Shown: one piece after another, positions 36,006 through 39,681 of the stretch
Position numbering within the stretch: the first letter of the stretch is position 1
Layout: each line of letters begins with the position of its first letter
Assembly (NCBI GenBank): GCA_963667365.1
Contig: OY763324.1
Coordinates: 3,921,829 to 3,985,828, forward strand
DNA from: Candidatus Poribacteria bacterium
Lineage (GTDB): Bacteria; Poribacteria; WGA-4E; WGA-3G
Reading direction: 5' to 3'
Length of the DNA stretch: 64,000 nt
Translations under genes and position numbers: made by a program
The notes under the pieces: model-generated
Database searches by the model: none
Told to the model about the DNA's origin: nothing
The model's input: the letters and a program-made list of their open reading frames with translations, nothing else

Positions 36006-36869
36006 ATGCTTGATGAACGTCATCTCCAGCATCAGATTACTGAGGAACAACTGTGTGCGTTAAATGCAGATGGGTTTTTTATTGTAGAAGACGCGCTACC
36101 GATAGAGCTTGTTGTCCAATTAGAAGAACGAGTTGATTCTATCTATAAAACTCATTTAGATGCTGAATATGACCCACATAGAAAAAAACAGATGACACCG
36201 CACGACAATTTTTTCTATCCAAATTTTCTTGGTAAAGACCAACTGTTTGTCAACATTTTGGATTGGTATAAAACCTTTCCTAAAGTCTGGGGTATTTTAG
36301 GATGGAATATCTACTCCTATCATAGCCATTTTATTATAACACCACCACGTCCTGAATCCTCGCGTGGGACTCAGTCACCACTGGGTTGGCATCAAGATAG
36401 TGGACGGGTGAATATTGAAATAGAGAGTTCTCCACGTCCCCGCCTATCAATTAAAGTTGTCTATTGGTTGTCTGACTGTTCTCTGCCGGGACGTGGAAAT
36501 TTCTATATTATTCCAGGTAGTCATCTGTGGGATAAGTTGGAACGACCTAAAGATGGAACACTCCCTGATGGAGCAACAGTGGTATGTTGTAAACCCGGAG
36601 ATGCAGTCTTTTTTGATAGACGGATATGGCATGCGCGTAGTGAAAATGACTCTGATATAACACGCAAAGGTATTTTTTATGGATATGGATACCGATGGTT
36701 ACGCAGTAAAGATGACATGACTATTCCTGATGATTTATTTACGCAGAACGATCCTATCCGTCAACAACTTCTTGGTGGAGGCACGAATGCAAATGGTCAT
36801 TTCTCCCCGAAAGATGTGGATGTGCCATTGAAGGTGTGGCTTGAAGAGAAAGGGGTTATTTCAAACTGA
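36006..36869 (+). CDS. phytanoyl-CoA dioxygenase (PhyH) family protein
   Basis: WHQD, IPGSH and PGDAVFFDRRIWH. Confidence 0.9.
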   Translation: MLDERHLQHQITEEQLCALNADGFFIVEDALPIELVVQLEERVDSIYKTHLDAEYDPHRKKQMTPHDNFFYPNFLGKDQLFVNILDWYKTFPKVWGILGWNIYSYHSHFIITPPRPESSRGTQSPLGWHQDSGRVNIEIESSPRPRLSIKVVYWLSDCSLPGRGNFYIIPGSHLWDKLERPKDGTLPDGATVVCCKPGDAVFFDRRIWHARSENDSDITRKGIFYGYGYRWLRSKDDMTIPDDLFTQNDPIRQQLLGGGTNANGHFSPKDVDVPLKVWLEEKGVISN

Positions 36870-36898
36870 TTGTAATGATGTTGTGAAATATAAATGTC

Positions 36899-36932
36899 TT
36901 GACATTACCTTCAGGTCGTGGTATGGTATAAT
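36899..36932 (+). promoter_or_regulatory. probable sigma70 promoter for the peroxiredoxin gene
   Basis: TTGACA-17nt-TATGGT, with TATAAT at 36927-36932. Confidence 0.45.
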
Positions 36933-37217
36933 TAGGATATGGATGGGGATTGCGATATTACATATCCACAAGTTTTTGTCTGAATCTCAGATTAATCAGA
37001 TCAATTAATTATCAGTATTTGTAGTGGTACCATTTATTGCTCCACAAGCAATTATCTGAATTCTTGATTTACATAGATTGCTTGTATTCCGCGAATTATT
37101 AACCTAATTTATCATTTTAATTAAATATGTTTAGAGTAAACGCGTACATCAGACTTTAATAATTCGTTTATTATTCATTTAACCTGATTTTAGTATTACC
37201 AATTTAGAGGTACAAAT

Positions 37218-38234
37218 ATGTTTCATAAACTATCAATTCAATTTGTTGGAGTCGTGTTATTATTTGCATTGCTTCTGACTCCAGCAGTAATAGCGGAGAA
37301 AGAAGTGGAAAAACCCAAAGAACTTACCGTAGGCATGGTTGCCCCAAATTTCACTCTTAAAGATGAGACAGACACCGAACGAAATCTCAATGAATTTTTG
37401 GGTGAGAAAAACGTTGTGCTTGCCTTTTATCCGAAAGACTTTACTGGTGGCTGAACAGCGGAACTTAAATCGCTCCGGGATAAATTGAGCGAAATAGAAG
37501 AGACAGAAACAGTCTTGCTTGGTGTTAGTGTAGACACGGTTGACTCCCATAAAAGGTTTAGAGAGGAAAATAAGTTTGGATTTTCTTTACTTGCCGATAC
37601 AGAATTTGAGGTAAGTAAGCAGTACAGCGGTATAATAGAAAGGTTCAACGCGTCAAAACGTACTACTTTCATTATAGACAAGGCGGGTTATATACGGGCT
37701 ATAGATAAAAAGGTCAATGTAAAGACACACGGTGATGATGTGGTTACTCTGCTTAATGATGTATTACCGAAGATAAAAGTAGGTCAGTCTGCGCCTGATT
37801 TTATCGTCAAAGATGCTGAAGGGAAATCATACCAACTCAGTAAGTTGCATGAGAAAAAGAATGTGGTTTTAGCGTTTTATCCGAGAGATTTTGGTCGTGG
37901 CTGAACGCTTGAAGTATGCTCGCTCCGTGATGAGTCGAGTAATTTTGCAAAACACGATGTCCAAGTCTTTGGAATTACTATGAATGATGCTGATTCTCAT
38001 CAGAAATTTACGGAAGAAAATAAGTTAAATTTTCCGTTGTTAGTAGATACTAACAAGAATCTTGCCTTCCTGTTTGGTGCTGCAGAAAAGTCGAAGGAAC
38101 GACTTAATCGTCTGACGGTAATTATTGATAAGGCAGGTAAAATAGTGAAAATTGACAAAGAGGTTAACCCAACCACCCATGGGTCTGATATAGTGGAATT
38201 CTTCAAAACTTCCGATACACCAAGAATTAATTAA
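37218..38234 (+). CDS. exported tandem BCP/PrxQ-type peroxiredoxin with two in-frame UGA (selenocysteine) codons, 338 aa
   Basis: ORFs 37218..37454, 37485..37904 and 37980..38234 share one frame. TGA at 37452 and 37902 fall at the peroxidatic positions: FYPKDFTGG-U-TAELKSLRD and FYPRDFGRG-U-TLEVCSLRD. N-terminal signal peptide. Confidence 0.9.
37470..37492 (+). promoter_or_regulatory. putative bacterial SECIS hairpin 1
   Basis: TCGCTC-(CGGGATAAATT)-GAGCGA, 15 nt after the first UGA. Confidence 0.6.
37917..37941 (+). promoter_or_regulatory. putative bacterial SECIS hairpin 2
   Basis: TGCTCG-CTC-(CGTGAT)-GAG-t-CGAGTA stem with a bulged U, 12 nt after the second UGA. Confidence 0.6.
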
Positions 38235-38845
38235 TGAAACACAAGGCTTCCTCGGTATTTCCCTCAAGGATTGCGCTGGGGACATCTGTAATATTCAGTC
38301 CGTTTCTCGTCCCAATTGTGGCAGCTATCTTCGTAATTAATAAACATGCTGACACAACCGAGGAAGTCTTACTTTGGTTCGTAGTTGTTGCTACGTTTGT
38401 GACAGTTCTTCCAATATTCTCAATATTTATGCTATATCGTTATTCTAAGGTGAGTGATGTGCATTTGCATGCCAAAGAAGAACGTCTTATTCCGTTAAGC
38501 TTAACATTAGCAAGTATGATGTTCGGTACTATCATTCTATATCGAATAGGTGCTAATGAAAGTATTATCTGGGTGTGTCAAGCGTATATTGTTAACAGTG
38601 TAGTGTTTACTGCTATCACCCCATTTTGGAAGATCAGTTTCCACACCAGCGTAGCCACAGGTTGTATTATAGTCTTGGCGTTATTCGTCAATCTGTATTT
38701 AGTATTGCTTTTCCTTTTTATTCCATTGATTGCTTGGGCACGAGTTTTTCGTAAACGACACACACTTACCCAAACTGTGGTTGGAACGGTGTTAGCAATT
38801 ATAAATACGATGTTATTTTACTATATTCTACCACCTACGGTTTGA
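38234..38845 (+). CDS. integral membrane protein, PAP2-like
   Basis: About 6 TM helices. WKISFHTS and WARVFRKRHT motifs. TAATG overlap with the peroxiredoxin stop. Confidence 0.7.
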   Translation: MKHKASSVFPSRIALGTSVIFSPFLVPIVAAIFVINKHADTTEEVLLWFVVVATFVTVLPIFSIFMLYRYSKVSDVHLHAKEERLIPLSLTLASMMFGTIILYRIGANESIIWVCQAYIVNSVVFTAITPFWKISFHTSVATGCIIVLALFVNLYLVLLFLFIPLIAWARVFRKRHTLTQTVVGTVLAIINTMLFYYILPPTV

Positions 38846-38871
38846 GATAAAAGGATGATCGAGTTTGTTTC

Positions 38872-39681
38872 TTATCGATATTGAGAATAACGTGCTAATT
38901 GTGGAAGATCATCCCAATCGCATTCCAAGCAGAAATAACTTTGACTGATTTGCCTCACCTCACCGTTACATTCAGGACAGCATGTAAGACGGTCCTCCTC
39001 TTTTGAATCGGATTCCGATGACTGTGGAAACAGCAATAGTTGTCCCATCGGTATTGCACTTTCTCGACTGGCAATATCCTGCTGGACAGTGTCAATTACT
39101 TCTTGTGCATTTAGATGGAATGGTGGGGGTGCATTTTCTGTTAGATCAATGAATCTACTTCGATAGAATCGGATACTTTCAACATCGTTGACACGTCGCA
39201 TGAATACCGTAAATTTTTCTGGTGCTACCAGAAATGCGGAGGAATCGTGTATGTGGTGTTTTGCATTTAGTGAAAGTTCATATCCTTCATATTCAAAGAT
39301 AGAATTTCCATATTCCAACATTGTTGTGTCTGGTGTGTCTTGAAATACCTCATTAAGTTCATAGGATCGGGTTACAGATAGAATTAAGGTATACCGTTGA
39401 CATGGAAACCGAGATAGGTGTTCTATTGGTAGAAAGGATTCTGGTTCAGAATTTTGTCGTAGAAATGTCGTAAATGCTTTATATGCAGCTTCTTCTGCCT
39501 CTTTCAAAATTGCACGATTTTCTCTTTGAAGATTTTGGTCGTTATTATCCGAATCAGATGTAAAGGATTCACGGATGTACATTTCAGTCTCAACATGAAC
39601 ATCAAGAACCCTATTCTCATTTCTTAGCAAATGAAGACGAAGAAACGGATCATCAACTGTTTTGAGGACAAAAGGTAACAT
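38872..39681 (-). CDS. hypothetical protein with C-terminal QLLLF plus Zn ribbon
   Basis: GGAG RBS; tail GQLLLFPQ...CPEC...FCLECDWD. Confidence 0.75.
   Translation of the reverse strand: MLPFVLKTVDDPFLRLHLLRNENRVLDVHVETEMYIRESFTSDSDNNDQNLQRENRAILKEAEEAAYKAFTTFLRQNSEPESFLPIEHLSRFPCQRYTLILSVTRSYELNEVFQDTPDTTMLEYGNSIFEYEGYELSLNAKHHIHDSSAFLVAPEKFTVFMRRVNDVESIRFYRSRFIDLTENAPPPFHLNAQEVIDTVQQDIASRESAIPMGQLLLFPQSSESDSKEEDRLTCCPECNGEVRQISQSYFCLECDWDDLPQLARYSQYR

Follow-up and report, generated by a model that had tools for sequence, protein, structure and literature searches.

Within a 64,000-nt stretch of the genome of a Candidatus Poribacteria bacterium (contig OY763324.1, positions 3,921,829 to 3,985,828; below, "the window"), we analyzed the region 37218-38234 on the plus strand, which very probably constitutes a single gene for a peroxiredoxin with two tandem domains and one selenocysteine (Sec) in each of them. 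The gene and the recoding of its two in-frame UGA codons are, with high probability, genuine and strongly conserved in one order of the Poribacteria, which are symbionts of sponges. The wider proposal, which includes export of the protein and its function as a peroxidase, is likely. The evidence consists of the gene structure, the conservation of both UGA codons, the Sec machinery of the genome, constraint and base pairing at the RNA level, and the fold of the protein.

A peroxiredoxin gene with two in-frame UGA codons

One reading frame extends through the whole region and is interrupted only by TGA codons at 37452-37454 and 37902-37904. Under genetic code table 11, it is split into three open reading frames (ORFs) of 78, 139, and 84 aa (37218..37454, 37485..37904, and 37980..38234, respectively). 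A preliminary description of the window had interpreted these three ORFs as parts of one frame. Retranslation reproduced the coordinates as well as the quoted sequences that begin at the two TGAs, i.e. UTAELKSLRD and UTLEVCSLRD. When TGA is translated as Sec (U), the region yields 338 residues that include U79 and U229, with no other stop.

We propose that translation begins at 37218 and that the three ORFs represent one gene for a selenoprotein of 338 residues. At each UGA, a hairpin that lies in the coding sequence immediately past the codon would recruit SelB and Sec-tRNA(Sec), which would result in the insertion of U79 and U229. The features of the region are compiled in Table 1.

Table 1. 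Features of the tandem peroxiredoxin gene and its surroundings (positions in the window)
Feature	Position	Strand	Details
Tandem Sec-peroxiredoxin, full coding sequence	37218..38234	+	338 codons plus TAA stop, two in-frame TGAs; structure shared by orthologues
Shine-Dalgarno-like GAGG	37207..37210	+	7 nt ahead of the ATG; read from the sequence
Putative Sec-type (general secretory) signal peptide, residues 1-26	37218..37295	+	K4, hydrophobic core L5-A26, V-I-A before E27; read from the sequence
Domain 1, AhpC/TSA, residues 38-161	37329..37700	+	P72, T76, U79, R148; Pfam, invariant columns, BCP/AhpE fold match
UGA 1, Sec79, peroxidatic position of domain 1	37452..37454	+	TGA in 34/34 aligned orthologues; Cys in P0021
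Hairpin 1, candidate bacterial Sec insertion sequence	37470..37492	+	6-bp stem UCGCUC/GAGCGA, 11-nt loop CGGGAUAAAUU
Domain 2, Redoxin/AhpC-TSA, residues 187-320	37776..38177	+	P222, G226, U229, C234, R298; Pfam
UGA 2, Sec229, peroxidatic position of domain 2	37902..37904	+	TGA in 34/34 aligned orthologues
Cys234 codon TGC, candidate resolving residue	37917..37919	+	5 residues past Sec229 (U-x4-C)
Hairpin 2, candidate bacterial Sec insertion sequence	37917..37941	+	9 pairs, one bulged base, 6-nt loop CGUGAU at 37926-37931
PAP2-like membrane protein, 203 aa	38234..38845	+	Pfam PAP2 23.9 bits, below the cut-off of 27.2

Both UGA codons are conserved in one order of the phylum

Matches with E<=1e-40 were obtained for 154 of 176 genomes of the phylum, all of them from one order. 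At the family level, 153 of the 158 genomes of families f1-f4 have a match, compared with 0 of 17 genomes of families f5-f11. Among the 150 matches listed, 145 contain exactly two TGAs, two contain three, and three contain one; none lacks a TGA altogether, and no Cys orthologue is found among these 150 matches. The three with a single TGA are two genes cut by contig ends and one paralogue.

For a closer comparison, we used the genome of the window and 40 relatives, from which 40 loci were cut out. Of the 24 genomes of the genus, 23 contain a full-length orthologue with two TGAs, with amino-acid identities of 69-83%; such orthologues also occur in three further families of the order, with identities of 49-63%. 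Altogether, 35 of the 40 loci encode a two-domain protein with U at both sites. The remaining loci are the paralogue, three single-domain Sec forms in genus g3, and one distant match.

The paralogue (L086, G014:C108:3100-4700) has an identity of 52%, carries Ser at the domain-1 site (FCPTDFLIGS), and retains the TGA in domain 2; it appears to be a half-inactivated copy. The three genomes of genus g3 (L089, L090, and L091 in G029, G035, and G026, respectively) have only a single-domain Sec form that resembles domain 2. These forms show 51-53% identity to residues 182-333 and have the same hairpin past the TGA. The distant match (L092, G031:C1:1503464-1504372), with two TGAs and 28% identity, did not fit the motif search. 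The orthologues of G023 and G025 each contain a further TGA in the region of the leader.

An error of assembly had been named as one possible origin of the two TGAs. This can be dismissed, as the TGAs recur in about 150 genomes and in contigs of two studies. DNA contigs in Logan from these two studies do not differ from the window across the stretch, including both TGAs. One is a single contig of 17 kb, which may be the source, and two contigs of the other, independent study jointly span the stretch. In addition, the Logan contig of a divergent strain keeps UGA 1.

Alternatively, the TGAs could be true stop codons, and the region would then be a pseudogene or comprise three independent small genes, with at most fragments being made. 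Compatible with this are the three ORFs of 78, 139, and 84 aa that table 11 predicts, the presence of the fragments P0123, P0193, and P0019 in public protein sets, and an extra in-frame TAA in the orthologue of G039. However, the 34 aligned orthologues, despite amino-acid identities of only 49-83%, all have the two TGAs at identical codons. Frameshifts are absent, and the active-site residues that flank each TGA on either side do not vary. Separate middle and C-terminal pieces would be devoid of a catalytic residue, and the table-11 starts, a TTG at 37485 and an ATG at 37980, fall inside the fold predicted by AlphaFold2. The full Sec machinery of the genome, described below, also argues against true stops. 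We regard this explanation as extremely improbable. The inspection of homologues for pseudogene decay, as suggested by the preliminary description, revealed no frame breaks at identities of 49-83%, with the TAA of G039 as the exception, and the homologues are under strong purifying selection.

Sec machinery and the use of TGA

The genome, which is represented by one contig of 4.78 Mb, was searched for the components of Sec insertion, and tRNA-Sec, selA, selB, and selD, as enumerated in the preliminary description, were all found. The tRNA-Sec (Rfam, 74.9 bits; anticodon TCA according to ARAGORN) is located directly downstream of selB (349.5 bits), and the scores of selA and selD are 606.8 bits and 358 bits, respectively. 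In the phylum, selA was detected in 163 of 176 genomes; among the 154 genomes with the tandem gene, it was detected in 147.

The window has a G+C content of 39.3%. Under table 11, 86% of it is covered by 54 ORFs of >=150 aa, 10 of which end with TGA, so that a genome-wide reassignment of TGA can be ruled out. Several orthologues of the tandem gene also terminate at TGA.

These values bear on the possibility that the two TGAs are read through without selenium, either by recoding (code 4 or 25) or by near-cognate Trp or Cys insertion, which would result in a protein with W, C, or G at these positions. In line with this, gene callers have translated the homologues P0002-P0017 with W at both sites. 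However, the respective contigs are short (923-4154 nt), and the choice of the code is unreliable for them. Apart from the regular use of TGA as a stop in the window and in orthologues, Trp or Gly at the position of the peroxidatic Cys would be inactive. Moreover, constrained hairpins with the same spacing follow both TGAs, and a tRNA-Sec adjoins selB. Read-through without selenium is very improbable in our judgment.

Additional in-frame TGAs were observed elsewhere in the genome. The selD gene (L019, G000:C1:2988789-2989715, outside the window) contains one, and the selenophosphate synthetase would thus itself be a selenoprotein in this organism. Two further peroxiredoxin-like matches outside the window, G000:C1:4002893-4003282 on the minus strand and G000:C1:1123235-1123693 on the plus strand, also contain one in-frame TGA each, and the relatives have many further peroxiredoxin-like matches with one TGA. 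This suggests that Poribacteria hold a sizeable, undescribed selenoproteome.

Conserved hairpins downstream of both UGA codons

According to a recent review, the model of the bacterial Sec insertion sequence (bSECIS) comprises a loop of 3-9 nt, a stem of 4-16 bp, a G at loop position 1-2, a distance of 16-37 nt from the UGA, and a minimum free energy (MFE) of <= -7.5 kcal/mol (PMC13188914). Hairpin 2, the loop of which begins 21 nt past UGA 2, agrees with this model in all respects. It has a G at loop position 2, which is followed by a U, and the free energy is -12.8 kcal/mol for a 54-nt stretch. RNAalifold independently predicts a hairpin at 37918-37940, and one more closing pair leads to the nine-pair version at 37917-37941. 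In this version, 97.4% of the cells are paired, compared with 24-46% for controls in which the 3' arm was shifted by 1-3 columns. Compensatory changes were found for two of the pairs, i.e. C-G to U-A in 2 sequences for one, and G-U to A-U in 10 sequences and G-U to U-A in 3 sequences for the other.

Hairpin 1 has an MFE of -7.2 kcal/mol, and its loop also begins 21 nt past the UGA. It agrees with the bSECIS model in part, namely in the stem, the G at loop position 2, and the spacing of 21 nt. The stem is invariant in 21 of 21 distinct sequences of the genus. The 5' arm has the same sequence at the same distance as at site 2, whereas the 3' arm of the genus differs. In the other families, site 1 has a register like that of hairpin 2, with 88.5% paired and a loop of 6 nt. 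A comparison of 37470-37492 with L075-L088 showed that the deviating 3' arm of genus g1 follows a change from Glu to Lys (GAG to AAA). Judging from these alignments, the SECIS pairing register at site 1 appears to have shifted, while the UGA stayed in place.

The constraint is also visible in the synonymous codons. The normalized synonymous-codon entropy in the 34 orthologues is 0.35 for codons 85-96 and 0.21 for codons 229-240, compared with a gene mean of 0.70. These are the two windows of 12 codons with the lowest values, codons 229-240 having the lowest in the gene. The Leu seven codons past each UGA is always encoded by CTC (33 of 33 sequences), whereas 5-6 different codons occur in other Leu columns.

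With a mixed alignment of site 1, RNAalifold suggested that the UGA region pairs weakly with UCGCUCC (-1.77 kcal/mol), with no covariation. We discarded this pairing, as the Gly codons involved are dictated by the protein sequence.

Domains, active sites, and fold of the read-through protein

The read-through protein contains two stretches that match the Pfam family AhpC-TSA (PF00578; E 3.3e-69, 231 bits, cut-off 26), and the Pfam family Redoxin also matches in two stretches. The best NCBIfam model is that of the BCP-type thiol peroxidases (NF006960; 184.3 bits, cut-off 140), again with two stretches. No model of a double selenoprotein was among the 15 NCBIfam matches of the protein.

In an alignment of 27 sequences, P72, T76, column 79, and R148 are invariant in domain 1, and P222, U229, C234, and R298 are invariant in domain 2. 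R148 aligns to the Arg of ARITFVIDK in Sulfolobus Bcp1 (3drn), and R148 and R298 are presumably the catalytic Arg residues of the active sites. With P72, T76, and U79, domain 1 has a complete PxxxTxxU motif. It lacks a resolving Cys; K84 is found at that position in this genome, and Cys is present there in some metagenomic homologues. Because of the full PxxxTxxU...R site and the absence of a resolving Cys, domain 1 would be of the 1-Sec type.

Domain 2 differs from this pattern. The preliminary description had assigned a peroxidatic motif with Thr to both TGAs and a complete AhpC/TSA domain to both halves. This is true for domain 1, and both stretches are recognized by Pfam. However, the second site in this genome reads FYPRDFGRGU, i.e. 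PxxxGxxU instead of PxxxTxxU, with Gly226 replacing the Thr, and the motif Thr is thus absent from domain 2 in this lineage. At position 226, Gly occurs in this genome and in 22 of the 34 aligned orthologues, and Thr occurs in the rest; families f2-f4 keep Thr. C234, the sole Cys of the protein, is present in 27 of 27 sequences. The U-x4-C of domain 2 corresponds to the CP-x4-CR spacing between the peroxidatic and the resolving Cys in atypical 2-Cys BCPs. U229 and C234 could form an intramolecular selenenylsulfide, as in these enzymes.

Over 141 residues, the two domains share 43% identity (E 8e-39), and the nucleotides past the two UGAs resemble each other. Based on both similarities, the simplest history would be that a Sec-BCP gene was duplicated in tandem along with its SECIS, which gave rise to the two domains of the BCP/PrxQ type.

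AlphaFold2, run with the 27-sequence alignment, predicted two thioredoxin-type domains with a mean pLDDT (predicted local distance difference test) of 89.6 and a pTM (predicted template-modeling score) of 0.84. The N-terminus was predicted as a low-confidence helix (residues 3-24) and a disordered stretch (residues 19-32). Foldseek matched one domain at a time, with Sulfolobus Bcp1 (3drn), M. tuberculosis AhpE (1xvw, 4x1u), BcpB (5epf), and PrxQ (3ixr) as targets. The target-normalized template-modeling (TM) scores were 0.83-0.90, with identities of 30-36% for 3drn, 1xvw/4x1u, and 5epf, and a TM score of 0.87 at 19% identity for 3ixr. The Foldseek search retrieved no solved chain that covers both domains (query-normalized TM <=0.42).

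The leader and an A-x-A|E pattern are conserved in the orthologues of the genus. The leader does not contain a Cys and is thus not a lipoprotein signal. It is probably a Sec-type signal peptide or at least an outward-facing membrane anchor. Owing to this N-terminal leader, the product would most likely reach the outer face of the cytoplasmic membrane, either by export or as an anchored protein. Its likely task would be to remove peroxide in the cell envelope, and a thiol reductant pathway of the envelope would recycle it.

A different division of labor between the two domains would also be compatible with a double selenoprotein. In this case, domain 2 would be a built-in resolving or recycling module that operates through a Se-Se or Se-S relay, or the protein would be a thiol-selenol oxidoreductase of the envelope. 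Several features point in this direction. Domain 2 of family f1 no longer contains the motif Thr (Gly in 22 of 34) and has kept U229 and the invariant C234, and domain 1 is devoid of a resolving Cys in this genome. The pTM of 0.84 indicates a fixed arrangement of the two domains. Related exported two-domain proteins combine one degenerate with one active domain (P0130, P0147, P0151, P0171, P0187, P0219, and P0124), and the paralogue of G014 has Ser at the domain-1 site. In contrast, families f2-f4 keep Thr in both domains, and therefore the ancestral state looks like two ordinary peroxidatic sites. We consider a resolving module or an oxidoreductase rather unlikely.

A specific version, to which we attach a similarly low probability, is that the fused domains form an intramolecular pseudo-dimer, in which the selenenic acid of U79 is resolved by U229/C234 of the Thr-less domain 2. 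If this were true, the Se-Se or Se-S relay would allow an exported peroxidase to turn over where thiol reductants are scarce, and no resolving module based on Sec would have been known before in a natural peroxiredoxin. The gene would likewise offer a natural system for testing two independent SECIS elements within one ORF, one of them with a change of register within a genus.

Weighing of the proposed tandem selenoprotein

We return to the two-Sec tandem peroxiredoxin that is exported and acts as a peroxidase, because several observations weigh against it or against parts of it. At the RNA level, the stem of hairpin 1 never varies in the genus and does not offer any covariation, and hairpin 1 is slightly outside the bSECIS model with respect to its loop (11 nt) and its MFE (-7.2). 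In addition, folding of the single sequences, i.e. the 69 nt past each UGA, resulted in z-scores of -0.64 and -0.22, which are not significant. The hairpins are convincing because of the comparative analysis and not because of single-sequence folding.

At the genome level, the search for selA yielded no match in seven of the 154 genomes with the gene; six of the seven are 73-90% complete, and the seventh (G016) is 95% complete and consists of about 300 contigs. The orthologue of G039 (L088, G039:C4:42500-44200) carries the in-frame TAA at codon 124, which reflects either a pseudogene or an assembly error in one metagenome-assembled genome.

With respect to the protein, the leader was judged by eye and may be an uncleaved anchor. 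The peroxidase competence of domain 2 is doubtful because the catalytic Thr is missing (G226). The necessity of two Sec insertions per chain should lower the yield. Two RNA-library contigs map to the gene, one of 251 nt that bridges UGA 1 and one of 220 nt at 37461-37680. Their depth is low (3.4-4.2), and they may stem from carried-over DNA. The insertion of selenium and the full-length protein, like export, peroxidase activity, and the reductant, are what we infer from the features described above.

Cys homologues and annotation in public protein sets

The preliminary description had proposed to compare homologues for an exchange of Cys and Sec at both sites. Such an exchange was indeed found in P0021, a distant tandem homologue of 375 aa with about 30% identity, which has FYPxDxTxGC in both domains and thus Cys in both columns. 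The column of UGA 2 contains Cys also in distant two-domain homologues. In the seven two-domain proteins mentioned above, a degenerate N-terminal peroxiredoxin-like domain is combined with an active Cys peroxiredoxin.

The splitting of the gene in annotations, which had likewise been anticipated, is evident in public protein sets. In a library of representatives at 50% identity, the family is mainly present as fragments that start or end at the TGAs, i.e. P0123 (140 aa, residues 90-227 of the query), P0193 (82 aa, residues 255-335 of the query), and P0019 (200 aa, ending before the second TGA). In contrast to these fragments, P0002-P0017 are sixteen near-full-length public proteins of 291-371 aa from contigs of 0.9-4.2 kb. 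Twelve of them were aligned, and W was found at the first column in all 12 and at the second column in 11, with G in P0016. The W at the Sec positions is apparently a systematic artefact of gene calling with code 4 on short contigs. The gene thus illustrates an annotation problem, as public protein sets hold it in fragments or with Trp in place of Sec.

Comparison with known selenoproteins and peroxiredoxins

Sec-containing peroxiredoxins are known. PrxU of Eubacterium acidaminophilum is cited in the review mentioned above, which lists the peroxiredoxin family as PF00578 with a TxxU motif and one Sec (PMC13188914). For the marine metagenomes of the Global Ocean Sampling (GOS), 253 "Prx, TxxU" genes and fusions of Sec-peroxiredoxins to other domains have been reported (PMC2398784). 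The protein of the window resembles PrxU and the "Prx, TxxU" proteins in that Sec replaces the peroxidatic Cys of PxxxTxxC and that a bacterial SECIS would be located within the ORF. It differs from them, as they have one domain and one Sec, whereas the protein described here belongs to the BCP/PrxQ branch and has a leader and two Sec. The PrxU model NF040737 yielded 103.7 bits, which is below its cut-off of 270 bits, and the protein is therefore not a PrxU equivalog. For each of its domains, the best family and fold matches are BCP/PrxQ and AhpE (NF006960; 3drn, 1xvw/4x1u, 5epf, 3ixr), but these are single-domain Cys enzymes without a leader.

The 2026 review counts 119 families of prokaryotic selenoproteins. 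A small number of them have two or three Sec, and several of these are fusions termed "double selenoproteins" (PMC13188914). MbdU (NF045648), the methyltransferase/UXPK-star fusion (NF047649), the HUGP/GUXX-star fusion (NF041212), and TsoB share with the protein of the window the presence of 2-3 Sec per bacterial chain. However, they combine unrelated domains or have adjacent Sec residues, whereas here one Sec-enzyme domain would have been duplicated together with its SECIS. In fusion double selenoproteins with sites in different domains, each site would need its own SECIS.

A corresponding architecture is found in exported proteins with a pseudo-peroxiredoxin and a peroxiredoxin domain and in the Cys/Cys protein P0021, all from public metagenomes. 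They share a leader followed by a peroxiredoxin-like and a peroxiredoxin domain at 24-33% identity, but use Cys, and most of their N-terminal domains lack a catalytic residue. No account of these proteins was found in the literature searched. A parallel for the presumed location is PprX of Caulobacter, which is said to be a peroxiredoxin of the cell envelope that is reduced through ScsB, a transporter of the DsbD family. As in this reported system, electrons could be fed across the membrane to an exported peroxiredoxin; PprX, in contrast, is a single-domain Cys enzyme. One gene for a DsbD/CcdA-type transporter (DsbD_TM, 172.4 bits) is present in the genome of the window, and a recycling pathway in the envelope via this transporter is possible.

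Sec-peroxiredoxins and a few double selenoproteins are already known, and the underlying principles are established. No natural tandem fusion of peroxiredoxins was found in the literature searched, nor was a tandemly duplicated Sec enzyme in which both UGAs and both hairpins persist throughout an order. BSepDB, which is described as handling proteins with two or more Sec, may already list the gene (PMC13326102). The selenoproteome of Poribacteria was not found to be described in the literature searched beyond a survey of Sec-containing hydrogenases, which names Poribacteria only among the sources of Sec-containing [NiFe] hydrogenases (PMC13582414).

If the two-Sec reading holds, a tandem Sec enzyme with two UGAs and two hairpins has been kept across a whole order (about 150 species genomes). 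This would imply that a SECIS in the coding region can be duplicated along with a domain, that two Sec insertions per chain can be maintained under long selection, and that one of two hairpins can be rebuilt in another pairing register with an unchanged UGA. It further suggests that Poribacteria, which are abundant sponge symbionts and live in a host tissue that is oxygenated and exposed to peroxide, have a rich selenoproteome that is still unexplored.

Genomic neighborhood

The ATG of the gene for a PAP2-like membrane protein overlaps the last base of the peroxiredoxin stop codon, and because of this overlap the two genes are probably co-transcribed. Among 74 loci, the PAP2-like gene is located directly downstream in 50, i.e. 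in 22 of 22 loci of genus g1 from the genome search and in all 28 loci of the Poribacteria type that came from the named collection; at the loci of other families among the 74, no such gene was found.

A scan of 36800-39000 for promoters and terminators did not reveal an excess, with 6 promoters compared with 7.3 in shuffled sequences and 3 terminators compared with 1.3. The RNA-library contigs X15 and X18 were considered as expression data and rejected, as they cover only parts of the gene. Most of the pieces are 31-67 nt long and cover the second active site. They come from relatives, because they are short and have loose ends. The upstream genes, which encode a PhyH-type dioxygenase and a GFO/IDH/MocA oxidoreductase, lie at a distance of 348 nt from the peroxiredoxin gene.

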